A stretch of 64,000 nt of DNA, taken from the sequence record MG748547; one strand, written 5' to 3'. Position 1 is the first letter of the stretch, and every line of letters begins with the position of its first letter. The position numbers were made by a program, and so were the translations under genes. Shown in pieces: positions 5,628-46,857 of this stretch. Under the pieces are notes generated by a model that made no database searches, had not been told where the DNA came from, and saw only the letters and a program-made list of their open reading frames with translations. This DNA comes from Escherichia phage EP75.

Positions 5628-6737
5628 TTAAAACAAACGTTTGTAAGTGCGACCATTGTACTGCATATGGCCTAATATGAAAATTGCGGTAAACGGAACA
5701 CAACCTAATAAAACGACGATAATCACTTCCCATGTCTTGAGGTCACGCCATTTCAGATACTCCATTTCCTTCATTTCAACGCGGTTATAGCCTTTGCTTA
5801 TATTGACTGCAACTTCTTGGAATACTGATATCCCCATGGGTTTGCCAGTCAATGAAAGACCGTTTCGGGAATGAAGTTCCATGTTATTCATCCCATCAGC
5901 AAATGACGTGGATTTACCCCAATTGATTTTCATATCCTTCGATATGTCAGTAACCACAATGACATCGTTCTTTTTACCACCAGACCATGCATATAGCAGC
6001 CCCTGAAAATATTCCACAGGCTGGCCAGAAGTCACTACCCACACGATATTGACCTGACGTGATGCCCCCAATGTTTTCAAAGTGTTGTTCAGATAATCAT
6101 TCCAATAATCAACGGGAATATCCATCCCTGACATATTCAAAACACGGGTTACTCGGTAATAATCATACACCCTCGGATATGACGGGATATGATCTTTGAA
6201 CTTCTCAGCGAATTGCTGGTCAGATTTAGAGAATAATGAATCTTTGTTGCCCAGCACATAATTCATATATGAATGTTCACGTGCCGCAGGTTCCCCGATT
6301 TTAACTTGTGCCCAACGCGGAGGCTCTGTAGTACCCTGACGATCAATACGGTCAATGCTCAGATCACCGACGGTTGTTAATACGTCCCAATCAACGTCAT
6401 AAGAGTGCTCATAGCACGTGCTGCAATGACGCGTTTGTGTACAAGATCGGTTATTTCCTGAACCAGAGCAAGAAGTTGTGTAATAGCACATACATTCATA
6501 AGAATGGCTACAACCCACCTTATTTCGTTGCTTGTCAGTAACGTACCCATTCAAAATTTCAACATCTCCCGAACTACCCAGGGAAAATGCAGCGTATGCT
6601 CCCGACTGGATAAGGCAAGACAATACGATAACAATGGCCGTGGCGATCAAAGTCTCCTTTGGCTCATGAGTCTTGCGGTGATATATCACAAACAAGATGG
6701 CCAAAATTACAGGAACCACAAACAGAAGGTAAATCAT
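5628..6737 (-). CDS. membrane protein with cysteine-rich ectodomain (two N-terminal and one C-terminal TM helices)
   Basis: 369-aa ORF; hydrophobic segments at both ends; CSHSYECMCYYTTSCSGSGNNRSCTQTRHCSTCYEH cluster. Confidence 0.5.
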   Translation of the reverse strand: MIYLLFVVPVILAILFVIYHRKTHEPKETLIATAIVIVLSCLIQSGAYAAFSLGSSGDVEILNGYVTDKQRNKVGCSHSYECMCYYTTSCSGSGNNRSCTQTRHCSTCYEHSYDVDWDVLTTVGDLSIDRIDRQGTTEPPRWAQVKIGEPAAREHSYMNYVLGNKDSLFSKSDQQFAEKFKDHIPSYPRVYDYYRVTRVLNMSGMDIPVDYWNDYLNNTLKTLGASRQVNIVWVVTSGQPVEYFQGLLYAWSGGKKNDVIVVTDISKDMKINWGKSTSFADGMNNMELHSRNGLSLTGKPMGISVFQEVAVNISKGYNRVEMKEMEYLKWRDLKTWEVIIVVLLGCVPFTAIFILGHMQYNGRTYKRLF

Positions 6738-22471: not shown

Positions 22472-22514
22472 AAAGATACCTCACCAAATTTTATTGAACA
22501 ACTGGTTTATTTAG

Positions 22515-25873: not shown

Positions 25874-25880
25874 CTAAATA
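25874..25880 (+). promoter_or_regulatory. late-promoter-like motif CTAAATA
   Basis: one of 9 copies of (A)CTAAATA 20-45 nt upstream of structural gene starts; resembles T4 late TATAAATA. Confidence 0.4.
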
Positions 25881-25920
25881 TCTTCAACACCATATTCAAA
25901 CTCAGGTGATGGAGATTATC

Positions 25921-27702: not shown

Positions 27703-28540
27703 TAATGGACACAATGGGGTTAAGTATGAAACCCCATTGTTCTATCAGAACGATTTTCCTCTGTTCATAGAGTTCATGGACACGTTCTTTAATTGGCTGT
27801 ATCGGCAGCAGGGCTTCACTCAAGAAGAAATTTTGGCATATCTGGCAGACACTTCGAGTTGGATGAACCCTGAAAGTGAAGATTCTCCTGTTAAACAACT
27901 CATAGATTTGAAGGCCGACAAAACGCCAGGCTCTGAAGCCAAAGATTATCTGTCAGATAAATTTTTGGTCAGAACATTTGAGAACATGATGGCACTTGAT
28001 GCTGAGACGTTGTTGGATGCTGATGGAAGACCATTATTTTCTATTGAAGATAAGAATAAGCAGATAGACGACTGGTATAATGATTTTGGGTTTCAACGAA
28101 CTGTCGATAAATCATTTCAAGAATTTGGACATTTTATCCCAGTCGGTTCGGATTCGTTGTTGACGGCCACGGGCGATACGTTCTCTGTCTATATTGAAGG
28201 AACTAACCGAAGAACTCTGGATCATCCGCGTTGGCTTAAATTGTTGAAGCACATCTATAAAATACGTGGAACAAAGAAAGCGATTGAATTGTTCTTTTGG
28301 ATATATTTCGGTTGTCCAGTCAGCGTCTATTTTACGAAAGAAGACATAGGCGGTCTGGACGGAAATTTTGAATGTGACGGCACGACAGGGATGCGTGATG
28401 ATTACTATTATGATGAATACACTTATGTTATAGGAGTCCCAGGCGACGTATCTGATTTTGAAGGTGTGTTTGAACGCGTCTTCCGTCAGCATTTCCATCC
28501 TGCTGGATTTACTGTATTCCTAGAAAGCACAAGGAGCTAA
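27686..28540 (+). CDS. baseplate-associated structural protein
   Basis: 284-aa ORF coupled to gp6-like gene. Confidence 0.45.
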   Translation: MSKDLNNGHNGVKYETPLFYQNDFPLFIEFMDTFFNWLYRQQGFTQEEILAYLADTSSWMNPESEDSPVKQLIDLKADKTPGSEAKDYLSDKFLVRTFENMMALDAETLLDADGRPLFSIEDKNKQIDDWYNDFGFQRTVDKSFQEFGHFIPVGSDSLLTATGDTFSVYIEGTNRRTLDHPRWLKLLKHIYKIRGTKKAIELFFWIYFGCPVSVYFTKEDIGGLDGNFECDGTTGMRDDYYYDEYTYVIGVPGDVSDFEGVFERVFRQHFHPAGFTVFLESTRS

Positions 28541-28542
28541 AA

Positions 28543-29733
28543 ATGGCCGATTTCCTGAGTCAATATACAGGTCAGCAGATAGATCAGATATTAGGTTCTG
28601 TTGATGACAAAGTAAGTAAAAACGACGTCATTGATGATTTTGAAGTCAGTGACCCATTGTTTCCGCCTTCTGCTCGCCTGACTTATGAGTTGAAAAGGTC
28701 TGTGGATACGATTAATGACACCCTGACCAACAAAGTTATAAGAACGGATAGTGGTGAACAGACAATCAACGGTAAGAAGACATTTAATGCGCTGTTGGTG
28801 ACCAATGGGGGCATACAAGTCCCCGCTGGGAAATCTGTTTCAATCGCGGACGAACCAACCAACTCAACAGACGGTGTCAACCTGAGTATGTTGAGGAAAC
28901 ATGGTGTCAGTGAAGACACTACCCCGCCTGGTTCTGGTTTGGCTGGGGAGTTGTTGACATCCGGATATTACAAATTCAATTTGGATTTCACCAGATTGTC
29001 TGCGTATACCGGACCAACGTTGCCGACTTCAGTTCCTGTGCAGACAGATTCTGGAGCGCGTTATTGGACAATGACTGCATTTTTTGATGCGTTGTTTGCA
29101 GACAACCGATTTAATGGATATGTGACAACGACAGCGTATGACGCAGATATGCTGAGTCTAGAGTCTCAGATTAATAACATCAACACGTCGTTGAACGGGA
29201 AAGTCAACACCTCGACTTACAACACTAAGATGGCGTCGTTGGATTTGAGTATCTCCAATATCAACACGTCTCTGGGTAATAAAGTCGAGGTCAGCACGTA
29301 CAACACGAAGATGACATCTCTGGATAACAGCATCAGTTCTCTTTCCAGTGATAAAGTTAGTGTATCAACGTATAATGCCAAGATGACCTCTATCGACAAC
29401 AGTTTGGGGAACGCCGTTTATCGTACCAAAACGAATTTGTCGTCATACACGGTTTCGGCTTCGGGAACGACGGCTCTTCCAGATTTTGATTTGGTGAACC
29501 TTTGTCAAATACTGGTAACTGCGCAATGGGGGACAGGTAACGTTGTTGACACATATCGAGTAACCATAACTCGTGACGGAACGATCAAATCAGAGTTGTT
29601 GGTTCAGAAAAGTACGAGCGGTACAGTGACGTTCACAGGGGCTGTGGTGGGTGGTAAATTGAGAATTTCCGTTGTTAATGCAAATACAACAACCGCTTGT
29701 TCTGTCGATTATTCTATTACAGCTTCTTTCTAA
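28543..29733 (+). CDS. tail fiber-like structural protein with tandem ~20-aa repeats
   Basis: repeats ...STYNTKM(A/T)SLD(N)SIS... x3-4; coupled to baseplate genes. Confidence 0.5.
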   Translation: MADFLSQYTGQQIDQILGSVDDKVSKNDVIDDFEVSDPLFPPSARLTYELKRSVDTINDTLTNKVIRTDSGEQTINGKKTFNALLVTNGGIQVPAGKSVSIADEPTNSTDGVNLSMLRKHGVSEDTTPPGSGLAGELLTSGYYKFNLDFTRLSAYTGPTLPTSVPVQTDSGARYWTMTAFFDALFADNRFNGYVTTTAYDADMLSLESQINNINTSLNGKVNTSTYNTKMASLDLSISNINTSLGNKVEVSTYNTKMTSLDNSISSLSSDKVSVSTYNAKMTSIDNSLGNAVYRTKTNLSSYTVSASGTTALPDFDLVNLCQILVTAQWGTGNVVDTYRVTITRDGTIKSELLVQKSTSGTVTFTGAVVGGKLRISVVNANTTTACSVDYSITASF

Positions 29734-29735
29734 AA

Positions 29736-29742
29736 CTAAATA
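29736..29742 (+). promoter_or_regulatory. late-promoter-like motif CTAAATA followed by hairpin
   Basis: AACTAAATACCCCTAGATGACATGAATACATTTAGGGGTATT upstream of tail spike gene. Confidence 0.4.
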
Positions 29743-29779
29743 CCCCTAGATGACATGAATACATTTAGGGGTATTACAA

Positions 29780-32700
29780 ATGGCCAACAAACCAACACAG
29801 CCTCTTTTCCCTTTGGGTTTAGAAACTTCTGAGTCTTCGAACATAAAAGGCTTCAACAACTCCGGCACTATTGAGCATTCCCCTGGTGCCGTAATGACAT
29901 TCCCTGAAGATACTGAAGTTGCAGGTCTTCCATCTTCTGTGCGTTACAATCCCGATAGCGATGAATTTGAAGGTTATTACGAAAACGGTGGTTGGTTGTC
30001 TTTGGGGGGCGGCGGAATACGCTGGGAAACGCTCCCTCACGCTCCCTCTAGCAATTTGTTAGAAGGTCGCGGCTATCTCATTAATAACACCACAGGGGCA
30101 TCTACAGTGGTTCTCCCTTCCCCTACGCGTGTTGGGGATTCCGTTACTATTTGTGATGCCTATGGGAAATTCGCGACGTATCCATTGACCGTATCTCCAG
30201 CGGGAAATAACCTGTATGGTTCCACTGAAGACATGGCTATAACAACTGATAACGTATCAGCAACGTTCACTTGGTCTGGACCTGAACAAGGTTGGGTTAT
30301 CACATCCGGCGTCGGCCTTGGCCAAGGCCGTGTCTACAGTCGTGAAATCTTTACACAAATTTTGGCGTCTGAAACAAGTGCTGTCACTCTCAATACTCCA
30401 CCAACAATCGTGGACGTGTACGCTGACGGAAAACGTCTTGCGGAATCCAAATATTCACTAGATGGGAATGTGATCACTTTCAGTCCTTCTTTGCCAGCCA
30501 GCACAGAACTTCAGGTGATTGAATATACTCCTATTCAATTGGGTAATGGCGGTGGTTCTGGTTCTTCTACGATTACCTGGGTCTATAATGGGGGTTCAGC
30601 GGTTGGCGGTGAAACCGAAATCACGTTAGACATCGTTGTCGATGATGTTCCAGCCATTGATATAAACGGAAGTCGCCAGTATAAAAATCTGGGGTTCACA
30701 TTCGATTCATTAACCAGTAAAATCACTCTTGCGCAAGAACTGGATGCAGAGGATGAAGTTGTTGTAATTATCAATGGAACGCCAAACATCTATAATCAAA
30801 TTGATTATACTTTGCGGGAAGTGGCTCGTGTAACCAATGTTAAAGATACAGAGGTCATTTATTTTAGTGTTGGTGCTGTGTTAAGTGGGTATAAAGTTAT
30901 CTATGATAAAGTAACACAGAGATCATATTTTATTCCAGAGCTACCGACTGGAACCACGGCAGTCAGCCTTAGTTCTTCGGCTGTACTTGTGCATTCAGCT
31001 GGTAGTGTTGATCTGGGCGCATTAGCTGTATCTCGCGAAGAGTATGTTACCTTGTCTGGGACATTTGATTCTGGTGCTGTCATCAATACTAAAAATGAAT
31101 TACTCACCCATACGAACGGTAAGTATCGCTGGGATGGTTCACTTCCTAAAACTGTCGATGCTGGATCAACACCTGAAACATCTGGTGGAGTTGGTATTGG
31201 TGAATGGGTAAGTGTTGGTGATGCTTCTTTAAGATCTGATTTGAATTCGACAAATGGAGCTGGAATTGTAAAAACTGGAAATGGGAATACTGTACAAGAA
31301 ACATTTGATTTTATAAAAAATGTTCAACAAACAAATCTACATCCTTTTGTTCCTTCAGGCAATTTCGGTTCTGGACTTCCTTTTGATTCTTCGTTACAGG
31401 TATTCAAGTATAATGATGAATATTACTCATACAAAGGACCTATTGTCCCAGGTTCGACAGTTCCGGCAACCCCATCCGTTGACTCAAACTGGAAAAAAGA
31501 ACCTATTTCTGATTACATAGAAAATTACGGTGGTGGTGTGCATGTAGCTGATCAGACACCTGCAATTATGGCGGCTATATCTGCTGGTGTTCGCCGTATC
31601 ATATTTCCTAAAGGTGAACTTAGAATGTCTCAGTGTGATATCCCAGAGTACACACAAGGCCTCACGTTTGAAGGGCAAGGTGCCAATCAGGCGTACACTG
31701 GAACAACAGTGATCAAACCGTTAAATGATAATCAAAATTGTTTATTTAATTCTGGCGTAAACCAGCACGGACAGGATTCTATAAAATTTAAAAACATTCA
31801 ATTTGACGGAGAATGGCGTTGCAATCATGCAATATTGCATGAGTCTGGAGCTGGTTGGTACTATGAAAAACTGACAGGTAAAAATTTCAATACATGGGTT
31901 ATCTACGATGATCAGGGTTTGACTGTAATGCGTGACGTTTATACCGAAGCAACCAGTTCAGATCTGACGAAAAGAGCTACAGGTGGGTGTATCCGTATAT
32001 ACTCAGATTCTGTAATGGACACCGTAAACTGTTATGGTGGAAGTGTTCCGCTATTGCTCGCTGCTGGTGGAAACCGAATTACGAATATCTGGGCAAATGG
32101 TGGGTATGATGTTGGCGCAATAATGTTGATGCCAAAAAATGACAGTACTAACCATATCAATACCGCTATGAGCAATATCTATATCGGAGAAAGCACAAAT
32201 ACATCTGCAACTGCAATTCCAGTTCTTCACATACAAGGTAACTCAATTCGTCGCGTATCTGGTGTTCAGATTTCAAATGCACATTTTGTGCATGCTGACT
32301 TGACTCTCAATACAAACATGGTGATGATACGAACCGATAAAGTTGATGGTTTTGTGATGTCATCTTTTGATGTTCTTGGACGAGGCGAGTACAGTTCTGC
32401 AAGCAGTCGCACATATAATTTCTTAAATGCGACAGATTCTACCGGAATGGCTTTTTCTGCCGGAAGTGTAAGAGGTATTAATAATAACCCAATAGTTTTA
32501 TCATCAGGGTCTAGGTTAGCTATTGATGCCGTTGAATTCGATGGGTGGAGTACGAACTCTGATTCAGGTATAGAGAATAAAGCTGCTATACGTTCATCTG
32601 GTGCTGGAACAAGGTGCTGCATTGGTAGCTCATGTACTTTCAATGCTTCGCAAGCGGATGCTTACGCTGTGTATGCAGGGGATGAATTTGCAGTTGATAT

Positions 32701-32821
32701 TTCTATTCTTAATCTTAACTATCCTAGTAGCAATATAATAATTCCTGCAAATACAAATTACAGTTACATGTATAAGCGACCAGGCGGAAAATTAACCTTA
32801 GTCAACACATTGACAATTTGA
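29780..32821 (+). CDS. tail spike protein (longest N-terminal extension; shared spike module at aa ~340-480)
   Basis: contains module EVIYFSVGAVLSGYKVIYDKVTQRSY...SVDLGALAVSREEYVTL...GKYRWDGSLPKTVDAGS shared with three downstream genes. Confidence 0.7.
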   Translation: MANKPTQPLFPLGLETSESSNIKGFNNSGTIEHSPGAVMTFPEDTEVAGLPSSVRYNPDSDEFEGYYENGGWLSLGGGGIRWETLPHAPSSNLLEGRGYLINNTTGASTVVLPSPTRVGDSVTICDAYGKFATYPLTVSPAGNNLYGSTEDMAITTDNVSATFTWSGPEQGWVITSGVGLGQGRVYSREIFTQILASETSAVTLNTPPTIVDVYADGKRLAESKYSLDGNVITFSPSLPASTELQVIEYTPIQLGNGGGSGSSTITWVYNGGSAVGGETEITLDIVVDDVPAIDINGSRQYKNLGFTFDSLTSKITLAQELDAEDEVVVIINGTPNIYNQIDYTLREVARVTNVKDTEVIYFSVGAVLSGYKVIYDKVTQRSYFIPELPTGTTAVSLSSSAVLVHSAGSVDLGALAVSREEYVTLSGTFDSGAVINTKNELLTHTNGKYRWDGSLPKTVDAGSTPETSGGVGIGEWVSVGDASLRSDLNSTNGAGIVKTGNGNTVQETFDFIKNVQQTNLHPFVPSGNFGSGLPFDSSLQVFKYNDEYYSYKGPIVPGSTVPATPSVDSNWKKEPISDYIENYGGGVHVADQTPAIMAAISAGVRRIIFPKGELRMSQCDIPEYTQGLTFEGQGANQAYTGTTVIKPLNDNQNCLFNSGVNQHGQDSIKFKNIQFDGEWRCNHAILHESGAGWYYEKLTGKNFNTWVIYDDQGLTVMRDVYTEATSSDLTKRATGGCIRIYSDSVMDTVNCYGGSVPLLLAAGGNRITNIWANGGYDVGAIMLMPKNDSTNHINTAMSNIYIGESTNTSATAIPVLHIQGNSIRRVSGVQISNAHFVHADLTLNTNMVMIRTDKVDGFVMSSFDVLGRGEYSSASSRTYNFLNATDSTGMAFSAGSVRGINNNPIVLSSGSRLAIDAVEFDGWSTNSDSGIENKAAIRSSGAGTRCCIGSSCTFNASQADAYAVYAGDEFAVDISILNLNYPSSNIIIPANTNYSYMYKRPGGKLTLVNTLTI

Positions 32822-32860
32822 TAACAAGAACCCATGATTCATAAATTTTATTAGTTCAGA

Positions 32861-32867
32861 CTAAATA
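32861..32867 (+). promoter_or_regulatory. late-promoter-like motif CTAAATA + conserved hairpin
   Basis: AGTTCAGACTAAATACCCCATATTGG...TATGGGGTAT; near-identical ~60-bp block at 35072..35134. Confidence 0.4.
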
Positions 32868-32900
32868 CCCCATATTGGTCATCCTTTATGGGGTATTATC

Positions 32901-35027
32901 ATGATTTCTCAATTCAATCAACCACGCGGCTCCACTTCTATAGAAGTTAACAAACAATCTATCGCTCGAAATTTCGGTGTCAAAGAAGACGAAGTCATTT
33001 ATTTCACTGCTGGTATTGATCTCAGTGGATTTAAAGTAATTTATGATGAGTCTACCCAACGGGCTTATTCTCTTCCTTCAGGTATTGTTTCAGGAACGAC
33101 TGCGATAAGTCTGAACGAACAAGCCATCCTTACTCATTCTTCTGGCTCTGTTGACCTTGGGGAATTAGCAGTAAGTCGCGAAGAATATGTGACTTTACCT
33201 GGTTCTTTTAATTTCGGCCATACCATTAATGTGAAAAATGAACTTCTTGTTCACGATGATAAAAAATATCGATGGGATGGTTCACTTCCTAAAACTGTCG
33301 ATGCTGGCTCAACACCTGAAACATCTGGTGGCGTTGGTTTAGGTGCATGGTTGAGTGTTGGTGACGCAGCATTTAGACAGGAAGCCAACAAAAAATTCAA
33401 ATATTCAGTAAAGTTATCTGATTATTCTACATTACAGGATGCAGCGACAGCAGCCGTAGATGGATTGCTTATTGATATCAATTACAACTTCACAGATGGT
33501 GAGTCTGTAGATTTTGGTGGTAAGACTTTAACCATTAACTGTAAGGCTAAGTTTATTGGAGATGGGGCTTTAATCTTTAATAATATGGGGCCAGGCTCGG
33601 TAATTAATCAACCATTCATGGAGAGCAAGACTACTCCATGGGTCATTTTCCCGTGGGATGCTGATGGTAAATGGATTACAGATGCTGCCCTTGTTGCTGC
33701 AACGCTGAAGCAATCAAAGATTGAAGGCTATCAACCTGGGGTAAATGACTGGGTTAAATTCCCTGGATTAGAGGCATTACTCCCACAGAACGTTAAAGAC
33801 CAACATATTACAGCCACTCTAGATATTCGCAGTGCCAGCCGAGTAGAAATAAGAAATGCTGGTGGTCTTATGGCTGCTTACCTTTTCCGTAGTTGTCATC
33901 ACTGCAAGGTAATTGATTCAGATAGCATCATTGGTGGTAAAGATGGAATCATTACCTTTGAGAACCTTAGTGGTGATTGGGGATTAGGTAATTATGTTAT
34001 TGGTGGACGTGTTCATTATGGTTCTGGTAGTGGTGTTCAGTTCCTGAGAAATAATGGTGGTGAATCCCACAATGGTGGAGTTATTGGTGTTACATCATGG
34101 CGAGCTGGTGAGTCTGGTTTCAAGACTTATCAGGGTTCCGTTGGTGGTGGTACTGCACGTAACTATAATCTACAGTTCAGGGATTCTGTTGCATTGTCTC
34201 CTGTTTGGGATGGTTTTGACTTGGGTTCTGACCCAGGTATGGCACCAGAACCGGATAGACCTGGGGATTTACCTGTATCTGAATATCCATTCCACCAACT
34301 GCCTAATAACCATTTGGTTGATAATATTCTTGTTATGAACTCACTTGGTGTTGGTTTAGGTATGGATGGTCGTGGTGGGTATGTTTCTAACGTTACCGTA
34401 CAGGATTGTGCTGGTGCAGGTATGCTTGCACATACTTACAACCGTGTATTTTCTAACATTACAGTTATTGATTGTAACTACCTTAATTTTGATTCTGACC
34501 AAATTATCATTATAGGTGATTGTATTGTTAATGGGATTAAGGCTGCTGGGATTAAACCACAACCATCAAATGGCCTGGTTATCAGTGCACCAAACTCCAC
34601 AATAAGTGGGTTGGTCGGTAATGTTCCTCCAGATAAAATTCTTGTTGGTAACTTACTTGACCCAGTATTAGGTCAGTCTAGAGTCATCGGGTTCAATAGT
34701 GATACTGCTGAGTTGGCTCTACGTATTAACAAGCTGTCAGCTACTCTGGATAGTGGTGCTTTACGTTCCCATCTGAACGGTTCTGCTGGTTCTGGTTCAG
34801 CATGGACTGAGTTAACTGCACTCTCTGGTTCAACCCCTAATGCTGTATCTCTCAAGGTTAACCGAGGAGATTATAAGACAACTGAGCTACCTATTTCTGG
34901 TACAGTATTACCGGATGAAGGTGTGTTGGATATTAATACAATGTCCTTGTACTTAGATGCGGGTGCACTGTGGGCTTTGATACGACTCCCTGATGGAAGT
35001 AAAACACGTATGAAGTTATCTGTGTAA
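32901..35027 (+). CDS. tail spike protein
   Basis: shared spike module at N-terminus; divergent C-terminal region. Confidence 0.7.
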   Translation: MISQFNQPRGSTSIEVNKQSIARNFGVKEDEVIYFTAGIDLSGFKVIYDESTQRAYSLPSGIVSGTTAISLNEQAILTHSSGSVDLGELAVSREEYVTLPGSFNFGHTINVKNELLVHDDKKYRWDGSLPKTVDAGSTPETSGGVGLGAWLSVGDAAFRQEANKKFKYSVKLSDYSTLQDAATAAVDGLLIDINYNFTDGESVDFGGKTLTINCKAKFIGDGALIFNNMGPGSVINQPFMESKTTPWVIFPWDADGKWITDAALVAATLKQSKIEGYQPGVNDWVKFPGLEALLPQNVKDQHITATLDIRSASRVEIRNAGGLMAAYLFRSCHHCKVIDSDSIIGGKDGIITFENLSGDWGLGNYVIGGRVHYGSGSGVQFLRNNGGESHNGGVIGVTSWRAGESGFKTYQGSVGGGTARNYNLQFRDSVALSPVWDGFDLGSDPGMAPEPDRPGDLPVSEYPFHQLPNNHLVDNILVMNSLGVGLGMDGRGGYVSNVTVQDCAGAGMLAHTYNRVFSNITVIDCNYLNFDSDQIIIIGDCIVNGIKAAGIKPQPSNGLVISAPNSTISGLVGNVPPDKILVGNLLDPVLGQSRVIGFNSDTAELALRINKLSATLDSGALRSHLNGSAGSGSAWTELTALSGSTPNAVSLKVNRGDYKTTELPISGTVLPDEGVLDINTMSLYLDAGALWALIRLPDGSKTRMKLSV

Positions 35028-35040
35028 TAAGTAACTTATG

Positions 35041-35066
35041 CCCCGCTTTGGCGGGGTTCTTATTAT
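35041..35066 (+). terminator. rho-independent terminator CCCCGC-TTTG-GCGGGG + T-rich
   Basis: read directly. Confidence 0.55.
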
Positions 35067-35096
35067 ACCTTTGTTCATAAATTTTATTAGTTCAGA

Positions 35097-35103
35097 CTAA
35101 ATA
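35097..35103 (+). promoter_or_regulatory. late-promoter-like motif CTAAATA + conserved hairpin
   Basis: duplicate of 32846..32898 block. Confidence 0.4.
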
Positions 35104-35124
35104 CCCCATATTGGCAAATCCTTT

Positions 35125-37905
35125 ATGGGGTATTTTCAAATGACTAGAAATGTAGAAGAATTATTCGGCGGCGTAATCACAGCTCCCCACCAGATTCCTT
35201 TCACGTATAAATCAAATGTCGGTGGAGAAACTTTCCTTTCCTTGCCGTTCTATCCTGTCACTGGCGTAGTCACAATCAACGGTGGTATGCAAGTTCCGTT
35301 AGACAACTTTGAAATCGAAGGAAATACGTTGAATCTCGGGCGCGCATTGTCCAAAGGCGATGTTGTGTATTGCTTATTCGATAAAATTCTTTCGCCAGAA
35401 GATACAGCCAAAGGTATCCGCATATACAAATTTCAAGCCGTAGGAGGTGAAACCGAGTTCACTCCTGATTTCACATCTTATGGAGTCCAATCTCTTTATA
35501 TCGGTGGCGAGTACAAAACACCCGAAATTGAATATTCCTATAACAGCATGACAGGGAAAGTATCTTTGCAAACTGCACTGACTGCAGGCGTTTGGGTAGT
35601 CGCTGAAATGTCTGTTAGACAACCGAATATCAGTCCGGCATTTGATCGAAGTATTCAAGAAATCGCCCGTTCTGCTAATGTAAAAGACTCTGAAGTCATC
35701 GTTAGTACGGACACCATATCTTTGTTGGATGGGAAGAAAGTTGTTTATGATATAGCGACGCAAACCAGTTATGGTTTACCAACCATACCTGATGGTTCTG
35801 TCATTTCTTCTGTATCTGCTGGGAAATTGAATTACAACCCAGGTGATGTGCAGGTTGATTTGTTGCCTTTAGAAGATTCATTTATTAATGTGATAAACAC
35901 TCTGGGGCGCAATGATGGTGCCAAGTATATTGGAGAATGCCATTCTGTTGCTGATCTCAGGAATACTGAACCCACTATGGATGGACAACGCATTATTCTT
36001 AAGCAACACACTGCGGGTACTCTTCTTGGTGGAGGGGTATTCCGTGCGTTAATTGATGGTACAGGAAAGACTGATAATAACGGTACTGTGATCAAAACTG
36101 TTGGCGGCGCAGCATGGTTACGTGTTAATGCTGATAGAGTTAACCCATTCATGTTTGGTGCTTTGGGTGGTTCTAATGATGATACTATTCCAGTACAATC
36201 TTGTGTGGATAGTGGTAAGGCCACACAATTAACTGATGCACATTACGTTAGCAATATCCAGTTAAAATATAATACGTCGTCTATTTATGGGTCTGGATTA
36301 CATTACTCAAGGTTGCATCAGTTGCCTTCTGCTACTGGGAATTGTATTACCATAAAAGATACATGCTCCCTTATTGTATTAGACGCCTTTGGGGTATATG
36401 GCACAGGTGCACAACAAGGCACGTCATTTACTGCGGGCACAACAGGTATCTATGTAGAAACTCCTTCAGGTCTCTCAGCCGATTATCCGTTCCACACTAC
36501 CGCAGACCCAAGACGCGACTTGTGTATTTCTAAAGTCCATATAGCAGGTTTTGATGAATATGGGTTAAATATTGATAGTGGTAACTTTAGTGTTACTACA
36601 GATTCTCTTTTAGTCAACCACATCAATCAGGTGGGTGTCCGTTGTGCTACTACTGATTGGACTTGGACAAATATCCAGGTTAATACCTGCGGTAAACAAT
36701 GTCTGGTTCTTGATGGTTGTGGTAATGGTCGTATTATTGGCGGTAAATTCATTTGGGCTAACTGGCAACCTTATGGTACAGTAGGACAGTTCCCAGGCAT
36801 TACTATTAATAACAGCCAGAATATGGTTATTAATGGTATTGAGGTACAAGATTGTGGTGGGAATGGCATTGAGATTAGCGATTCATATTCAATTTCCATG
36901 AACGGATTGAACACCAATCGTAACGGCATCAATGCTAACAACACTTTCTACAACATCGTATTTAACAAAAGTGATGCAGTTATCAACGGATTCGTAGGAC
37001 TCAATTATGCCGCGAATAGTGGTTCAGGTGCTAACTCTAGTGCAGGCAATTTTCAGTTCCTGTCTAATGATTGTAGTGTCACCATTAATGGTGTGGTTGA
37101 GACTGGTTATATGGGCATTAACTTTATTGGTGATAACAATATTATCAACCCCACCAATTCCGACCTGAGCATTAACGGATTGGTTAATTATTCCAAGACT
37201 GGTTTGCAAACCATGAACGAGACCCCTACATTTGATGGTGTTAGCACTACACCTGTTTATGTAAGTGTCCCATCTTCTGTAGGGCAAGTAAATGGTCTGA
37301 GACTATCACAAGCCAACAAAGATAAATTACTGTACTCAAGAACAGCAGGTCCAGAAGGTATTACCATGGCTGCTGTTATAGTACCTACTATATCTGGAGC
37401 TGAAGTATTTAACTTCATGGCCATTGGTTCAGGGTTTAGTGATACATCCAACAGTCTTCATCTTCAATTAGTTATAGACGCTTCTGGAAAACAAACAATT
37501 GCTTTGCTATTGGGGGGCGATGGTACAACCCAAATTTTATCTGGGGATTTACCTAACGACCTTAAACTACAAAGTGGTGTGCCATATCATATAGCTATTG
37601 GTGCTAAACCTGGATATTTCTGGTGGAGTATTCTTAATATTCAGACGGGTAAGAGAATCAGACGGTCATTCCGAGGCGCTTATTTAGCCGTACCATTTAA
37701 TTCTATATTCGGATTAACTTCCTCATTAACATTCTTCTCGGATAGCAATGCTGGTGGGGATGCTTGTTCTGGGGTGGGCGCTAAAGTGTATGTTGGTATG
37801 TTCTCTTCTGAGAACGATTATGTAGCTTCACGATACTACAACCTGATTAATCCTGTAGACCCTACTAAGTTAATTAGTTACCGTATATTGGATTCTTCTA
37901 TTTAA
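35125..37905 (+). CDS. tail spike protein with distinct N-terminal baseplate-attachment-like domain
   Basis: weaker copy of the shared module (SEVIVSTDTISLLDGKKVVYDIATQTSYGLP); glycine/serine-rich beta-rich remainder. Confidence 0.6.
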   Translation: MGYFQMTRNVEELFGGVITAPHQIPFTYKSNVGGETFLSLPFYPVTGVVTINGGMQVPLDNFEIEGNTLNLGRALSKGDVVYCLFDKILSPEDTAKGIRIYKFQAVGGETEFTPDFTSYGVQSLYIGGEYKTPEIEYSYNSMTGKVSLQTALTAGVWVVAEMSVRQPNISPAFDRSIQEIARSANVKDSEVIVSTDTISLLDGKKVVYDIATQTSYGLPTIPDGSVISSVSAGKLNYNPGDVQVDLLPLEDSFINVINTLGRNDGAKYIGECHSVADLRNTEPTMDGQRIILKQHTAGTLLGGGVFRALIDGTGKTDNNGTVIKTVGGAAWLRVNADRVNPFMFGALGGSNDDTIPVQSCVDSGKATQLTDAHYVSNIQLKYNTSSIYGSGLHYSRLHQLPSATGNCITIKDTCSLIVLDAFGVYGTGAQQGTSFTAGTTGIYVETPSGLSADYPFHTTADPRRDLCISKVHIAGFDEYGLNIDSGNFSVTTDSLLVNHINQVGVRCATTDWTWTNIQVNTCGKQCLVLDGCGNGRIIGGKFIWANWQPYGTVGQFPGITINNSQNMVINGIEVQDCGGNGIEISDSYSISMNGLNTNRNGINANNTFYNIVFNKSDAVINGFVGLNYAANSGSGANSSAGNFQFLSNDCSVTINGVVETGYMGINFIGDNNIINPTNSDLSINGLVNYSKTGLQTMNETPTFDGVSTTPVYVSVPSSVGQVNGLRLSQANKDKLLYSRTAGPEGITMAAVIVPTISGAEVFNFMAIGSGFSDTSNSLHLQLVIDASGKQTIALLLGGDGTTQILSGDLPNDLKLQSGVPYHIAIGAKPGYFWWSILNIQTGKRIRRSFRGAYLAVPFNSIFGLTSSLTFFSDSNAGGDACSGVGAKVYVGMFSSENDYVASRYYNLINPVDPTKLISYRILDSSI

Positions 37906-37957
37906 AAAATATACCCCTCTTCGGAGGGGTCTTTACTAGAAAAACAATGAGGTACTT

Positions 37958-40222
37958 ATGAACGAAATGTTTAGTCAAGGTGGTAAAGGTTCAACTGGAA
38001 TCTTAACCAATAAACAAGCAGTAGCCAGACACTTTGGAGTTAAACAATCTGAGGTTGTTTATTTCTCAGTTGGTGTAGATTTAGGTGGGTATAAAGTTAT
38101 CTATGACAAGGAAACGCAAAGAGCTTATTCCTTACCTGTTGGTATTGCTTCTGGTACTACTGCCGTCAGTCTTAGTACTGCTGCTGTACTTGTACATTCA
38201 GCAGGTTCTGTAGACTTAGGTGCATTAGCTGTATCTCGTGAAGAATATGTTACCTTGGCTGGGACATTTGATTCTGGCTCTACGCTTAACGTTAAAAATG
38301 AATTACTTACTTATACAGATGGTAAGTATCGCTGGGATGGGGCATTACCTAAAACTGTCGATGCTGGTTCTGCCCCAGCTTCAAGCGGTGGAGAAGGTCC
38401 TGGTGGATGGATTAGTGTTGGTGATGCTTCTCTTCGATCTTATTTAGCAACGAACTCAGGTTCTGGCGCTGTTGGCTATAGCTTCAAAGGTCTTGTGAAT
38501 GCATCCCATAGAAAAGTAAACGAGAAATTGGATGAGTATGCTAGCCTTTGGGATTTCCACTGTGACTCAAGTGGTAACGTCATCCAACCTGGGTTATCCA
38601 CAGATAGCAGGCAGTATATTCAGAACGCGGTTGACGCTATTTCTGATGCTGGCGGTGGCACATTAGTTATTCCCGTTGGTTATACATGGTATCTAAACAG
38701 CACAGACCCTGCATCTGGGCACAGCGGTATTATTCAGCTCAAGAGTAATGTCAATATCCAGATTGAAGGAACCATAAAGATAGGTCCTGCATTAGCTTCT
38801 TCATCATTTCAGATATTCGTAGGGTTCGATAATGGAAGCCCGGCTGCATCAGGCAACCTGAATAACTGTCATATCTACACTAATGGCAATGGTACAATAG
38901 ACTTTGGTGGATACGATTTTGATAACACTTCTCAATTAAGGAACGGTATTGCCTTTGGTAAGAGCTATAACTGTTCCGTGTCTCGTATTATCTTCCAAAA
39001 TGGTGATATTACATGGGCCGTAACTACAGGCTGGAATGGGTACGGTAGTGATTGTGTGGTGCGGAAGTGCCGTTTCATTAACCTCATCCAGAGCAATAAC
39101 AACGCAGACCACAGTACTGTTTACATCAACTGCCCCTACAGTGGTGTTGAGGGTTGTACATTCCGTGCCTCATCTACTCGTGCACAGATGATTGCTTGCA
39201 CTGTAGAACTACACCAGCATGATACTTGGTACAGGGATTCTTTCATCGAAGGGTATGTACGTGGGTGCTACATTGCCCTGCATGGTGTAGAGGCGGCTGG
39301 GGCTGGTACTTATATCTACAATGCTGTTGTATCAGGCGTTACTGGTGACATCTCAGGTCAGGCTATTATATTAGCAGCAGGACCTGACTCCGTGACAACT
39401 ACACACATCAATGGTGTTTCTGTGGAGAATTGCAGAATTACTGCTGGCAACCAAGCTGGAATGTGTAGCTTTATTGACTTCTTCCAGGATAGTAACTCTG
39501 ACTCAAGCCAGTACCTTATTAACCACGTTACGGTTAAGGGGTGTAGTTTTATTGTAGACCGTAATCGTGCACTCAGTGCAGCAATAACAATTAACGGCAG
39601 CATACAGGGTATTACGTTCCAAGATAACTTCTTTGACGTTAAACAAGCCATGGTGTCTGAATTGCCTTCAGGAAAAACAGTGCAGTTAGTACGGTTTAAC
39701 TGGGATGAAAGTAATATCATTGGTGATGATAACACTGGTACGCGTAATGCCCTCAATCTGTTCGAGACTCGGCGTGTCTCCAGTATGACCAAATGCAATA
39801 TATCTTTGCGTATGCGTCAGCCAAGCCCAGAGTTATTTAGCCTTATGTATTTTAGACCAAATGAAACCACTTTCAGTGACTGTACATTTGAGGTACTGCC
39901 ATACAACTGGTCGTGCACATCAGGAAACCCTATAGTTTTTGAAACTACAGATACCCCACCATCTGGAATGCGTGTTCGTTTTCCTAAGTCAATTTCATTT
40001 ACGTTGCCTGCTGGTTCGAACGCCCAACGTGCTACAGGGGGTTCTGGTTATTCTTGGGTGGCTAGAGCAGATGCTCTTGATAGGCGTAGCATTTCTGGGC
40101 AATTTGACGCTCCGGCATCTTACTCCGGATCTAGTGATGGTAAATTGATTGGAATAGGGTGGCAGTTAGACGGAGTACAGCATACCTACGACCATAATGT
40201 GTATTTGCAAAACTTTACATAA
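37958..40222 (+). CDS. tail spike protein
   Basis: shared spike module at N-terminus (VVYFSVGVDLGGYKVIYDKETQRAYSLP...GKYRWDGALPKTVDAGS). Confidence 0.7.
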   Translation: MNEMFSQGGKGSTGILTNKQAVARHFGVKQSEVVYFSVGVDLGGYKVIYDKETQRAYSLPVGIASGTTAVSLSTAAVLVHSAGSVDLGALAVSREEYVTLAGTFDSGSTLNVKNELLTYTDGKYRWDGALPKTVDAGSAPASSGGEGPGGWISVGDASLRSYLATNSGSGAVGYSFKGLVNASHRKVNEKLDEYASLWDFHCDSSGNVIQPGLSTDSRQYIQNAVDAISDAGGGTLVIPVGYTWYLNSTDPASGHSGIIQLKSNVNIQIEGTIKIGPALASSSFQIFVGFDNGSPAASGNLNNCHIYTNGNGTIDFGGYDFDNTSQLRNGIAFGKSYNCSVSRIIFQNGDITWAVTTGWNGYGSDCVVRKCRFINLIQSNNNADHSTVYINCPYSGVEGCTFRASSTRAQMIACTVELHQHDTWYRDSFIEGYVRGCYIALHGVEAAGAGTYIYNAVVSGVTGDISGQAIILAAGPDSVTTTHINGVSVENCRITAGNQAGMCSFIDFFQDSNSDSSQYLINHVTVKGCSFIVDRNRALSAAITINGSIQGITFQDNFFDVKQAMVSELPSGKTVQLVRFNWDESNIIGDDNTGTRNALNLFETRRVSSMTKCNISLRMRQPSPELFSLMYFRPNETTFSDCTFEVLPYNWSCTSGNPIVFETTDTPPSGMRVRFPKSISFTLPAGSNAQRATGGSGYSWVARADALDRRSISGQFDAPASYSGSSDGKLIGIGWQLDGVQHTYDHNVYLQNFT

Positions 40223-40235
40223 TAGATTAATTAAC

Positions 40236-40265
40236 AAAAACCCCGCTTCGGCGGGGTTTTTATTT
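40236..40265 (+). terminator. rho-independent terminator CCCCGC-TTCG-GCGGGG-TTTTTATTT
   Basis: read directly; identical core at 53781..53805. Confidence 0.65.
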
Positions 40266-40288
40266 CTATCCTGTTTGTTGGCTGTATA

Positions 40289-40295
40289 CTAAATA
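40289..40295 (+). promoter_or_regulatory. late-promoter-like motif CTAAATA
   Basis: GTATACTAAATATCTC ~35 nt upstream of the 1612-aa gene. Confidence 0.4.
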
Positions 40296-40328
40296 TCTCT
40301 ATAAAATGGCACTCTATGGAGCATCAAA

Positions 40329-43300
40329 ATGCAATCTACAAATTTAAACCGTCGCCCGTATTGGGATGACTGGAATCCTGGGAAACGTTTTTCACGGATT
40401 CTTTTTCGTCCGATGCCTATCAAGGTTCAGACTCGCGAACTGAACCAGATGCAGACTATTCTTCAGGATCAAATTGAAAAACTGGGCAACCATTTGTTCA
40501 AAGATGGTTCTATGGTTATCCCTGGTGGTCTGACGATTACCAATGCCGCAGTCTCTTTGAAATTCACTTTGGCTGGTGGTACTGAATTCACTGATCTGGA
40601 AGGTATTTCTGAACTCTACGTTTTGGGGAAGGACAATAATGCCAAAGCGCGTGTGTTGTCTCTTGAACGTGATCTGTCTGCTCCTGATACGATGCTGGCT
40701 ATCCTTGAGATGACTGAAGCGGGTAATGCTGACGGATTCCATGTTAACGATAATCTGTATTTCCAGACTTACGACGTGAATGATAATTTCATTCGTATTG
40801 GTTATGGTATCGCAGCTGCAGTGACTGGTTCTATCGTCGCTCGTATGACAAAAGGCGTTTACTTCATTCGTGGGATGTTCCTAGACGTTGATGACGCAAC
40901 TCTTATCGTTGATAAAACTTCTAACATCACTTCCCACCGCATCGGATTTAAAGTCACCGAAACTATTGTCACCGAAACAGAAGATGAATCCCTTTATTCA
41001 AATGCTCAGGGAACGATTAACTCTAAAGCCCCAGGCGCTCATCGTCTTCGAATAGATCTGGTCTTATCTCGATTTGATTATGATGCTGTGGTTGAAGACT
41101 TTGTTGAACTGGCCAAAGTTCGTGAAGGTAAAATCCAGTCTATGGTGACTCAGTCCACCTATAATATTCTGGAAGACACGTTAGCCCAACGGACTTATGA
41201 AACCAATGGCGATTACAACGTTTCAACCCACCAGATCGATATTCGTGAACACCTGAAAGTCAATAACAATGGCGGGGTATTCAATGCCGCTGATGGCGGT
41301 GACGAGAGCAAATTTGTTTCTGTGATGAAACCAGGCATATCCTATGTTCGCGGTCGACGTATCGAAAACGTCGGGGAAGAGTTGGTGATCGTTGATAAGG
41401 CGCGGGATACCGATGTCCTGAACAACACCCCTGTTGCGGTGGCCACAGGCAATTATCTGGTCACTAAGAATTCTAAAGGTGTGCCAGTGATATCCCGCAC
41501 CGTTCGATACAAATTACTGAATGCTTCAGGCGTTACCCAGGCTACAGCACTTTGTATATCAGCTGAACGTAATTCAACAGAATTTCGTCTGTATATGCGC
41601 GACCTGGTCGTTACTGGCGATGCATCCACTATCACCAAAGTGTCTTACGAAGAAAGCGGTATCACCATGTTCTCTGCTGAACTGGAATCCAATCAGTTTA
41701 ACCAGAGTTCTATGATAGATCTGATCTTCTCTCTTCCGGTATTCGGTGTCAAGACTTTAGCACCAACTGGCTCCGTGGATATCAACTACACTGTTCTCAG
41801 AACGTATAAAGTGACGTTGGACAACAGCGGCGCGGGTTCTATTTCTGCTCCATTGGGATATAGTTTTTCCCCAGAATTTTCGTTATACTCTGCAGCGAAA
41901 TCAGATGGTTCGGAAGCGCAGTTCGATATCTCTGGTTCTTTGTCTTTGACTGGTTCTCCGGTCGGTTCGGCGCTGCAGATTTCTCTGGGCAGTGGTAATG
42001 CTAACCAGTCAATCAATTTGCTGGCGCTGATGATTCGTACCACGGCCACAATCAAAACGAAGACCATCACTGAAACAACTGAAACAGTGACGTTCACCTC
42101 GCAGACTAGCCGCCCTTTGGCGAATCACGATGGTTGGAAATTGGTGTCGGTCAAAAACGATACTGGCGCAGACGTGACCTCCAGCTTCGTCCTAGATGGC
42201 GGACAGCGTGATGCAGGGTATTACAAGTCTAACTTGTTATCCAGCGCTGGAGCAATCTCAGGGACGTATACAGTGGTGTATCAATACTTCGCCCACAGTT
42301 CCGGTGATTTCTTCTCTGCTGATTCGTATACTTCGATGGATTATAAAGATATCCCGAATTATACATCTTCTACATCAGGCGCGGTGTACGGCCTGGCAGA
42401 TAGTTTGGATTTCCGTCCGAAAATCACCAACGGAACTTCTGACACAGATATGGTTCGTCCAAACACTGCAGTTATTCTGGACACAGAATATTATCTGCCG
42501 CGTATTGACGCGATTTATCTGGCAGACAACGGCGTGTTCGGAGTGGCTCGTGGCATCAGTTCGAACAATCTGGCTTCTCCAGCAATCCCAGCGAACGCCA
42601 TGCGTTTGTATGAATTGTTGATCCCGCCGTATACACCGAATATTGATGATATTCAAATTCGAACTATTGATAATCGTCGTTATACGATGCGCGATATCGG
42701 TAAACTGGAAACCCGTATTTCCAATGTTGAATACTATACCTCTCTGTCACAGCTGGAATCTTCAGCGATGACACAGCAAGTGTTCGACCCCATCACGGGT
42801 AATCCCCGTTTCAAAAATGGTATTGCGGCTGATCCGTTCAAAGACTTCCGGTTGATTGATGACTTGTCTGAAGATTGGATGGGTTCTATCGATACCGAAA
42901 ACGGACGTCTGCGCCCGTTTGTACAACAAAACGTTGTTGACATGACTCCTGTTGGCTGGAACAAAGTGATGGATGGGATGGTGGTTTGCAATTACACGCC
43001 TGAAATCTCAGTGAACCAAGAATATGCGACGACGACGATCAACGTTAACCCGTATGCAGTATTCAATTGGGAAGGTTTCTTGAAGATTAACCCGACCACA
43101 GACTACTGGTTCGAAAACTATTATGTTGCGCCGCGTATTATCAATGAAACGATCAACACCCGTGGTACTGTACAAGAAGGTTCAGTGTACGGAACATGGC
43201 GTACTGTTTCTGTTTCTGATCGTGTTTGGGAACCGCATGGCGCTGGTGGTGTGTGGTGGGGATATCGTTACCGCACGACTGTTTCTGCCCGTGATGTCAC

Positions 43301-45793: not shown

Positions 45794-46532
45794 GATTCGA
45801 GACAAAAAATCTTTTATGAATTATGTCTTGCGTAAATTGGGCGCTCCTGTGATCCAAATTAACCTTGACAGTTCACAAGTCGAAGATGCAGTCGATGATG
45901 CTCTGCAGAAATTTTGGGAATATCATCGTGATGGTAGCCAAGATGCGTTCTTCCTGTACCAAGTTAAACAAGAAGATATCGACAAGGGATATATAGAATT
46001 CCCCGATGATATTGACGATGTGATTGAAGTTATCCCTGGACCTCCTATTGAGTCAATCGGAAACTGGGCAACTCCTCAATGGCAAATGGCTCAAGCAATG
46101 CTTGTCCCCAAAGCAGCGCTGGTTTCTATTCGTCTCATTGATTATGTTTCCATGCAACAACGTCTGTCGGATATCACAAGCGTCTTAAATGTTCGCCGTA
46201 ATTTTGTGTACAAGAAGTTCCAGCGACGCCTTTACCCGCAGTTTGCTGCCATTGTTGATGAAACCCTGGCTTTTCGTTGTTATCAAAATATCGACCCCGA
46301 ATCGGAAGAAAACGCTGAAGCATGGAATGATATGTGGTTGAAAGCGTATGCGACTGCATTGGTCAAGCGCCGTTGGGCAGAGGTGCTTAAGAAGGCAAGA
46401 GGCATCCGTCTCCCTGGTGGTATCGAACTGGATGGTGATAGTATGTTCAGTGAGGCCGAGACCGAGATAGAGCGGCTGGAGGAAGAATTGCGTACTGGTC
46501 AGCAATACCCTATCGATTTTATGATGGGATAA
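45780..46532 (+). CDS. neck protein (T4 gp13-like)
   Basis: position immediately upstream of gp14-like gene in T4 order; start trimmed to MAVNKIR. Confidence 0.45.
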   Translation: MAVNKIRDKKSFMNYVLRKLGAPVIQINLDSSQVEDAVDDALQKFWEYHRDGSQDAFFLYQVKQEDIDKGYIEFPDDIDDVIEVIPGPPIESIGNWATPQWQMAQAMLVPKAALVSIRLIDYVSMQQRLSDITSVLNVRRNFVYKKFQRRLYPQFAAIVDETLAFRCYQNIDPESEENAEAWNDMWLKAYATALVKRRWAEVLKKARGIRLPGGIELDGDSMFSEAETEIERLEEELRTGQQYPIDFMMG

Positions 46533-46800: not shown

Positions 46801-46857
46801 TTGACTAAATACCTTCAAAATTGAGGGTAAAGTCATGGCTACTTCAAAATATTTCTG
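46801..46857 (+). repeat. 57-bp degenerate direct repeat of the gp14 promoter/5' end (copy 1, truncated after 7 codons)
   Basis: ACTAAATAccTTcAAAaTTGAGGgtAAAgTcATGGCTACTTC vs 47577..47633. Confidence 0.6.

Follow-up and report, generated by a model that had tools for sequence, protein, structure and literature searches.

A duplicated late-promoter and hairpin module before tail-spike genes of Escherichia phage EP75 and its proposed role in restricting translation to promoter-initiated transcripts

The tail-spike gene cluster of Escherichia phage EP75 lies within a stretch of 64,000 nucleotides (nt) from sequence record MG748547 (the whole of this stretch is referred to below as the window), and two of its genes, those for the tail spikes TSP3 and TSP2, are each directly preceded by a copy of the same short block, which combines a late-promoter box with a predicted hairpin. 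The window belongs to a Kuttervirus (family Ackermannviridae): positions 32700-35300 are 99.5% identical to the Salmonella phages SJ3 and ST-W77 and find matches in 320 phage records, almost all of them from Kuttervirus. The gene order is that of the annotated relatives SPTD1 and CBA120, i.e. baseplate gp6, two small structural genes, TSP4, TSP3, TSP2, TSP1 and VriC. TSP3 is recognized by its Pfam PhageP22-tail domain (E = 9.5e-303), which is preceded by Tail_spike_N. The features of the cluster, and the other elements of the same design that are discussed below, are collected in Table 1.

Table 1. Genes and regulatory features of the tail-spike region and related elements (positions in the window, except where SPTD1 is named; box, hairpin and start assignments are predictions)
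Feature	Position	Strand	Details
TSP4	29780-32821	+	Tail_spike_N domain
TSP3	32901-35027	+	708 amino acids; P22/Det7-type receptor-binding domain; promoter block is copy 1; annotated TSP3 in SPTD1
TSP2	35140-37905	+	921 amino acids from ATG 35140; PHROG tail fiber and spike families; promoter block is copy 2
TSP1	37958-40222	+	Tail_spike_N domain
VriC	40329-45167	+	gene order as in SPTD1 and CBA120
Copy 1, AT-rich upstream part (TTCATAAATTTTATTAGTTCAGA)	32838-32860	+	identical in both copies; common to both copies in Kuttervirus only
Copy 1, late-promoter box CTAAATA	32861-32867	+	'Kuttervirus late gene promoter(16)' at the corresponding position in SPTD1; predicted start ~32872-32875
Copy 1, hairpin	32864-32897	+	5' arm AATACCCCATA 32864-32874; 12-nt loop 32875-32886; 3' arm TATGGGGTATT 32887-32897
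Copy 2, AT-rich upstream part	35074-35096	+	identical to copy 1 part
Copy 2, late-promoter box CTAAATA	35097-35103	+	'Kuttervirus late gene promoter(17)' in SPTD1; predicted start ~35108-35111
Copy 2, hairpin (12 bp)	35099-35135	+	5' arm 35099-35110; 13-nt loop 35111-35123; 3' arm 35124-35135
Intrinsic terminator after TSP3 (GCCCCGCTTTGGCGGGGT and T-rich tail)	35040-35057	+	from terminator scan; 17 nt 5' of copy 2
TSP4 element	29736-29775	+	box 29736-29742; 14-bp hairpin 29739-29752 / 29762-29775 (AAATACCCCTAGATG / CATTTAGGGGTATT); ATG 29780
ORF301-type element	18350-18382	-	box 18376-18382; hairpin ATACCCCATAC / GTGTGGGGTAT; ATG 18349 of open reading frame 17900-18349 (phrog_4700, function unknown)
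Resolvase element	SPTD1 45959-45995	-	fifth element; 13-bp stem AAATACCCATAAC / GTTATGGGTATTT, with CCC/GGG in place of CCCC/GGGG; gene for a RuvC-like Holliday-junction resolvase

A sequence-only reading of this region had described a near-identical block before two tail-spike genes, and a repeat search bears this out. Positions 32838-32878 and 35074-35114 are identical at 41/41 nt and, after a small insertion or deletion in the loop (TC in copy 1 vs CAA in copy 2, i.e. 2 vs 3 nt), 32881-32901 and 35118-35138 match at 20/21 nt (95%). The full copies run from 32838 to 32901 (64 nt) and from 35074 to 35138, a few bases off the limits proposed before (32846-32898 and 35072-35134), and each lies directly 5' of a tail-spike gene. 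The same reading had pointed to a CTAAATA motif and to an 11-base-pair (bp) hairpin hiding the region 5' of the start codon; both arms were indeed found, and they enclose the Shine-Dalgarno sequence. This sequence, GGGGT, lies inside the 3' arm in both copies, at 32890-32894 in copy 1 (7 nt 5' of the ATG) and at 35127-35131 in copy 2 (9 nt 5' of the ATG), and the annotation of phage Mutine puts the ribosome-binding site on the same G's of the 3' arm. The loop of copy 1 holds an inner GG/CC pairing, and the arms that copy 2 shares with copy 1 (AATACCCCATA / TATGGGGTATT) are found at 35100-35110 / 35124-35134. With ≤1 mismatch allowed, CTAAATACCCC occurs 5 times against 0.7 expected.

The heptamer CTAAATA occurs 19 times in the window, where 6.9 would be expected, and none of 100 shuffled sequences reached this number. 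The plus-strand copies from 25874 on are located 19-40 nt 5' of structural-gene start codons (23-40 nt for gp6, TSP4, TSP3, TSP2, VriC, the neck protein, prohead genes and others), and the GenBank record of SPTD1 labels exactly these box positions as "Kuttervirus late gene promoter". In phage T4, late promoters have no -35 element and consist of an 8-bp box that spans -13 to -6 (PMC2988020). CTAAATA agrees at 6/7 positions with T4 positions -12 to -6, which read ATAAATA in T4. In line with the absence of a -35 element from T4 late promoters, nothing upstream of the box is shared between genera: the AT-rich upstream part of copy 1 is not conserved in Agtrevirus, Limestonevirus-like phages, Taipeivirus or Nezavisimistyvirus, and similarity there starts at CTAAATA. 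Homologues of gp55 (ORF109) and gp45 (ORF050) are annotated in the close relative SPTD1 and gp33 has been reported for phage LPST94; in addition, a reporter has been placed under the control of a late promoter from the family (PMC9965104). According to the CBA120 paper, the late motif was unknown at the time, and the LIMEstone paper lists 33 late promoters, their sequence not being stated. A literature search on CTAAATA as a phage motif gave only unrelated papers, and a scan for sigma-70 promoters returned 26 matches against 32 expected, no more than chance. One sigma-70-like match (TTGACA-17-CATGAT, 10/12) lies at 32810-32838, over the TSP4 stop codon and just 5' of copy 1, and is part of the 3' end of this particular TSP4 cassette; if it were active, the resulting RNA would contain the whole copy 1 hairpin.

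Not every box is followed by the same sequence. In SPTD1, CCCC comes after only 4/20 CTAAATA boxes and CCCA after one more, and all five are boxes that bear a hairpin. The late-promoter consensus of the Ackermannviridae ('Viunalikevirus') is reportedly CTAAATAcCcc (Adriaenssens et al. 2012, Arch Virol 157:2035), and the boxes of copies 1 and 2 agree with it exactly. Because in SPTD1 only the hairpin-bearing boxes precede CCCC or CCCA, the lower-case C's of this consensus probably stem from the hairpin subset rather than from promoter recognition, which would explain why they are optional. With the box at -12 to -6, as in T4, transcripts from the two blocks would be expected to start just after the CCCC (Table 1).

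The position of the box within the hairpin is central to our interpretation. The 5' arm comprises the final AATA of the box and seven further nt, and the sequence so formed, AATA-CCCC-ATA, is exactly complementary to the Shine-Dalgarno region TAT-GGGG-TATT. Predicted folding energies are -20.9 kcal/mol for copy 1 (z = -4.3) and -23.3 kcal/mol for copy 2 (z = -4.7), with 0/200 shuffles as good, whereas RNAs beginning at the predicted +1 reach only -5.2 and -4.5 kcal/mol, with z ~0 and no better than shuffles. The computed cost of opening the segment from the Shine-Dalgarno sequence to the AUG follows the same pattern: 19-20 kcal/mol in RNA begun 80 nt upstream or at the box, and 7-8 (copy 1) or 6 kcal/mol (copy 2) in RNA from the predicted +1, TSP4 behaving alike. 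Since part of the 5' arm is supplied by the CTAAATA box, control most likely depends on transcript type and not on a switch within a single RNA: RNA read through from upstream would be closed, and RNA started at the promoter would be open.

We propose that each block is the full expression joint for one tail-spike gene, made up of a T4-type, gp55-dependent promoter, with CTAAATA as its only recognizable element, and a leader carrying the Shine-Dalgarno sequence GGGGT. Read-through RNA, whether from the preceding spike gene or from early or leaky transcripts, would contain both arms and fold into a hairpin of 11-14 bp in which the ribosome-binding site is buried. RNA born at the promoter, starting ~6 nt past the box and after the CCCC, would be devoid of the 5' arm and leave the site open, such that each spike would be translated essentially only from transcripts of its own promoter. 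Spike output would in this way be decoupled from read-through, and TSP4, TSP3 and TSP2 would be provided with near-equal promoter and start-site strength. We regard a late promoter joined to a leader hairpin that exposes the ribosome-binding site only in promoter-initiated RNA as the best explanation of the block, and hold it with moderate confidence. Translational control had already been suggested for the block; the strong hairpin enclosing the Shine-Dalgarno sequence speaks for this, but the presence of the promoter box within the 5' arm had been missed. Read-through is possible at copy 1, since the terminator scan found no terminator between the TSP4 stop codon (32821) and the block.

Three other roles for the hairpin were considered and rejected. 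Melting by a ribosome terminating on the upstream gene is ruled out in general, the TSP4 stop codon being 43 nt from the copy 1 stem and copy 2 following a terminator. A hairpin that protects the 5' end is ruled out because the box is part of the stem, leaving the promoter's own RNA without it, and an RNase III site is ruled out by stems that are too short. At the TSP4 element itself the upstream stop codon lies 6 nt before the stem, and coupling by a terminating ribosome is possible there. A scan of 29000-41000 against Rfam 15, with E up to 1, gave no match over the blocks; its only hits were sub-threshold, and 7/8 of them fell at the terminator at 40236-40261.

Of this arrangement, the promoter has been recognized before, and the hairpin would act in the manner of a device familiar from T4. 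In T4 genes e (lysozyme), soc, 49 (endonuclease VII) and I-TevI, a late promoter is located in the 5' strand of an inhibitory leader hairpin; long transcripts form the inhibitory helix and are poorly translated, whereas late-promoter transcripts, which are without the 5' arm, are translated (PMC3014915). The Kuttervirus elements resemble these in having a late box of the TATAAATA type in or next to the 5' arm and a 3' arm that holds the Shine-Dalgarno sequence or the AUG and, by geometry from the predicted start, promoter-started RNA should be unable to form the hairpin. The Kuttervirus design differs in that it is found on structural late genes with late upstream neighbours, such that the contrast is likely to be between own promoter and read-through and not between early and late; in that it is present at 5 of about 17 late boxes and weaker at the rest; and in that CTAAATA is followed by CCCC and not by an AT-rich stretch. 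No mention of the hairpin, or of its pairing with the ribosome-binding site, was found for this family in the searchable literature.

The five hairpins (TSP4, TSP3, TSP2, ORF301 and resolvase) share one architecture, with differing apical stems and with loops of 5-17 nt, and in elements of this design GGGG or GGG is always found 5-9 nt 5' of the ATG. The TSP4 element has a predicted energy of -19.9 kcal/mol (z = -4.4) and the minus-strand ORF301-type element one of -19.1 kcal/mol (z = -3.3). The resolvase gene, which lies within a run of same-strand replication and recombination genes, is the functional counterpart of T4 gene 49 and carries the same design. Its annotated start codon in SPTD1 is inside the 3' arm of the hairpin, and in one relative the box before it reads GTAAATA.

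Pairing between late boxes and gene starts was also assessed across SPTD1, by matching the 15 nt from TAAATA onward with the start region of the box's own gene and taking permuted pairings as the control. Own-start pairing had a mean of -8.8 kcal/mol compared with -5.0 kcal/mol for permuted pairs (p = 2e-5), a result unchanged without the duplicate copy, and with the five strong cases removed the difference persisted (-5.2 vs -3.5 kcal/mol, p = 4e-4). In 149 control genes with no box, own and permuted pairing barely differed. Pairing as strong as -12 kcal/mol was reached by 5/17 late-box genes and by 2-4/149 controls (Fisher p = 1e-4 to 6e-4). Weaker pairings are visible in the window at the neck protein promoter (46805-46835, TACCTTCA with TGAGGGTA) and at the gp6 promoter (25874-25915, ATCTTCA with TGGAGAT), and these feed the genome-wide signal that is left without the strong cases.

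A search with the 66-nt block gave hits in 268 phage records, and Kuttervirus genomes mostly have two such sites; an absence from relatives, which would have spoken against the sequence-only reading, was thus not seen. In phages of Klebsiella, Dickeya, Shigella and Erwinia the match is restricted to the stretch that begins with the box and ends with the 3' arm. Both spike-type hairpins were present in 5/5 clusters inspected, namely those of CBA120 (Kuttervirus), Gloob (Agtrevirus), phiDP23.1 (Aglimvirinae, Limestonevirus-like), Magnus (Taipeivirus) and Bue1 (Nezavisimistyvirus). Of 18 IMG/VR loci retrieved through the N-terminal protein of TSP2, all 15 on contigs of Ackermannviridae size carry the element (15/15), and the remaining three (28-31% identity, contigs of 35-73 kb) have no box upstream of the match. 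In every class throughout the five lineages, conserved stems are combined with variable apical loops: TSP3/TSP2-type loops read TC, CAA, CG, TAACG or TT, TSP4-type loops consist of 9-15 unrelated nt, and the ORF301-type combines stems that are invariant among relatives with five different pentaloops. In the resolvase hairpin, 100% of 78 cells are paired over six distinct sequences, with one compensatory change of A-U to U-A. Pairs were not counted for the TSP4-type hairpins, whose 3' arm was misaligned between genera by MAFFT.

This comparison also bears on the start of TSP2, for which there are two in-frame ATG codons: 35125, within the 3' arm of the hairpin and used in the SPTD1 annotation, and 35140, used in that of CBA120. 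Because the upstream in-frame ATG of phiDP23.1, read from its sequence, meets a stop codon (ATG GGG TAT TAA), the true start is probably 35140 (MTRNVEE...) and not 35125; the beginning MTRN, MSRN or MARN is kept across genera.

Several observations weigh against the occlusion model. Covariation is thin: the resolvase hairpin provides a single compensatory event, a score reached by 89/500 shuffles, and the spike stems are invariant in all relatives found, so that covariation is uninformative there. RNA started at the promoter still has weak structure that would cost 6-8 kcal/mol to open, and the start site itself is placed by T4 geometry alone. The CCCC just past the box is unusual beside the AT-rich stretch of T4 late promoters. 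Copy 2 follows the intrinsic terminator at 35040-35057, so that little read-through may reach it, and in Mutine and CBA120 a terminator precedes copy 1 as well; because terminators often precede the blocks, the need for translational insulation is less obvious. In addition, the upstream neighbours of the spikes are also late genes, and the early/late logic of T4 gene e fits the resolvase, not the spikes directly, the benefit of occlusion being less clear for the latter.

Lastly, promoter function constrains the 5' arm and ribosome binding the 3' arm, and these constraints alone could conserve both. On this basis the complementarity might be a by-product of a C-rich stretch kept for the promoter and a G-rich Shine-Dalgarno sequence kept for the ribosome, the hairpin having no regulatory role and the duplication representing two copies of a strong promoter and ribosome-binding site. 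Stems that hardly vary and show almost no covariation would suit this account, since both arms coincide with elements constrained anyway, as would the presence of the C's in the reported family consensus, but we think it unlikely. The pairing runs past CCCC/GGGG to 11-14 bp by extensions specific to each paralogue (ATA/TAT, TAGATG/CATTTA, ATAC/GTGT and ATAAC/GTTAT); most late boxes lack CCCC, so that a late promoter can do without it; where another sequence comes after the box, it still fits the start region of its own gene better than those of other genes, as given by the test without the strong cases; and the resolvase hairpin has its compensatory change.

Conservation of this kind could also reflect a DNA operator, the inverted repeat being bound by a dimeric phage protein that regulates late expression of the spikes. 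The repeat is perfect over 11 bp and does overlap the promoter, and its sequence, not just its pairing, is highly conserved. However, the spacing between the arms ranges from 5 to 17 nt among paralogues and genera, which is unexpected for a fixed dimer site, and no candidate regulator was identified; of all the explanations weighed here we give this one the least credence and consider it very improbable.

A further possibility is that the hairpin is a terminator or insulator acting on incoming upstream RNA, from which the promoter's own RNA would escape through the overlap of the 5' arm with the promoter. In the Mutine record the copy 2 hairpin is annotated as 'terminator', overlapping the ribosome-binding site, and UAUUUUC comes directly after the stem of copy 2, where the A-rich box pairs with the U-rich tail. 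Neither copy was called by the terminator scan, however, and the tails of copy 1 (UAUUAUC), the TSP4 version (UAUUACA) and the ORF301 version (UAUCUAUG) are not U-rich. Loops of 9-13 nt (12-13 nt in the two copies) are long for intrinsic terminators, a canonical terminator is already present 17 nt 5' of copy 2, and the constant feature among the elements is the distance from GGGG to ATG and not a U-tract. The terminator explanation appears improbable to us, and the label in Mutine is probably a software call.

The terminators that do flank these genes are themselves related. Those after TSP1 (40236-40261), after TSP3 (35040-35057) and after TSP4 of Mutine (5996-6024) are versions of one sequence, CCCCGCTT(C/T)GGCGGGG, and the TSP1 terminator is identical to that of Mutine TSP4 at 29/29 positions. 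Judging from their sequences, these terminators seem to be a further part of the repeated intergenic module that contains the promoter and hairpin.

Comparison with relatives that carry other spikes places this module at the edge of exchanged segments. Against Mutine, the window is conserved at 28013-31243 and 32838-35790, and variable in the C-terminal parts of TSP4 and TSP2 that follow each of these. Against CBA120, it is conserved at 28013-31257, 32841-33376 and 35043-38431 and again from 40219, and variable between, the segment from 33376 to 35043 being the C-terminal part of TSP3. Over hundreds of records, homology is regained at 32832, 32838, 32845 or 32861 for the first joint. For the second joint the usual point is 35041, in the terminator before copy 2, and in some records it lies at 35051-35097. 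These boundaries suggest that the cassettes are the C-terminal receptor-binding parts of the spike genes, whose 3' ends abut the terminator/promoter/hairpin module. In TSP4, TSP3 and TSP1 a repeat of ~400 nt with 67-79% identity (30839-31242, 32979-33385 and 38039-38445) corresponds to the conserved Tail_spike_N and adjoining anchor module, 5' of each variable receptor-binding part. The gene order from TSP4 to VriC, the conserved N-terminal parts and the swapped C-terminal parts are as described for the modular spike clusters of Ackermannviridae (PMC9965104, PMC8825819). What goes beyond that description is that the 3' edge of each cassette is the start of a terminator/promoter/hairpin module, which gives exact boundaries for natural spike cassettes, and that the modules are paralogous and differently homogenized from phage to phage.

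The length of the paralogous repeat is 23 nt in CBA120, 46 in Gloob, 64 in the window and SPTD1 and 97 in Mutine (terminator included), and the module after TSP4 of Mutine is 92.9% identical over 98 nt, terminator included, to the module after TSP3 of the window. Because repeat length differs between phages, the sequences indicate repeated exchange or conversion between copies. The duplication itself probably reflects an old paralogous module whose copies have been homogenized repeatedly since, and the module would also delimit, on the upstream side, the homology arm by which receptor-binding cassettes are swapped.

It might then be asked whether the block is mainly a recombination site, i.e. 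a portable homology box for exchanging whole spike cassettes between phages or positions, a role in cassette exchange having been suggested for it beforehand. There is partial support for such a role, in that homology with relatives carrying other cassettes resumes at the block edges, cassettes ending exactly where the modules begin (32838/32841 and 35041/35043), that the extent of the repeat varies between phages, that the post-TSP4 module of Mutine is homologous to the post-TSP3 module of the window and that both Gloob copies have a derived CCTCT and a CAA loop. On the other hand, it is C-terminal gene halves and not whole genes that are swapped, since the 5' cassette boundaries lie inside genes, after Tail_spike_N, and do not run from block to block. 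The conserved arm, consisting of the block and of the anchor module at the N-terminus of the following spike, measures 0.5-3 kb, and the block accounts for no more than its initial 64 nt; exchange can be explained without these 64 nt, which are not a dedicated recombination site. The same design also precedes genes that are neither spikes nor exchanged (ORF301 and resolvase), and what is conserved across genera is exactly the promoter and hairpin, which fits expression better. Given the small share of the block in this arm and the presence of the design at non-exchanged genes, expression and not recombination is the better primary explanation, and a chiefly recombinational role has, in our judgement, little to recommend it.

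Taking the occlusion model one step further, promoter-embedded occlusion of the ribosome-binding site might be a rule throughout the Ackermannviridae, every late box being followed by sequence tuned to its own start region, such that only promoter-born transcripts are translated efficiently and insulation within the spike cluster equalizes TSP4, TSP3 and TSP2 output. We put this forward tentatively, as a possibility that we think less likely to hold than the model for the block itself. If it were true, the promoter-hairpin joint would be a plug-and-play connector by which cassettes could be exchanged and stoichiometry kept, irrespective of the cassette or terminator located upstream. Under the occlusion model, a regulatory design of T4 would also be in use in a second, T4-related phage family, where one of the genes concerned is the functional counterpart of T4 gene 49. 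It is also of practical relevance, as Kutterviruses are modified for diagnostics and biocontrol by spike-domain swaps and by reporters placed behind late promoters: if the model is correct, a gene behind the block would be translated well only from transcripts of that promoter, and keeping or removing the 5' arm would change expression from read-through. For annotation it matters that the hairpin is labelled as a terminator in one deposited genome and that start codons within the 3' arm have been chosen for TSP2 and the resolvase in others.

Some CTAAATA boxes lie in other settings. On the minus strand of the window, the box at 22508-22514 comes directly after the 3' end of a tRNA-like sequence (…GGTTCAAGTCCAGCCAGGGTCACCA) and before a small open reading frame; at its counterpart, the SPTD1 annotation gives tRNA-Met and then late promoter 13. 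Two annotated late promoters of SPTD1 (65570 and 60409, minus strand) look doubtful, one box being in the loop of a terminator-like hairpin (GAAGGGCA-CTAAATATCACG-TGCCCTT, then T's) and the other in the loop of a CCCCC/GGGGG hairpin. Annotating promoters by motif alone is over-calling them.

TSP1 is without a CTAAATA box of its own and is presumably co-transcribed with TSP2. After the TSP2 stop codon there is a tight UUCG-loop hairpin at 37913-37930 (ACCCCTCTTCGGAGGGGT, with a weak T-tail), and an ordinary GAGGT Shine-Dalgarno sequence (37949-37960) lies 5' of the TSP1 ATG at 37958.

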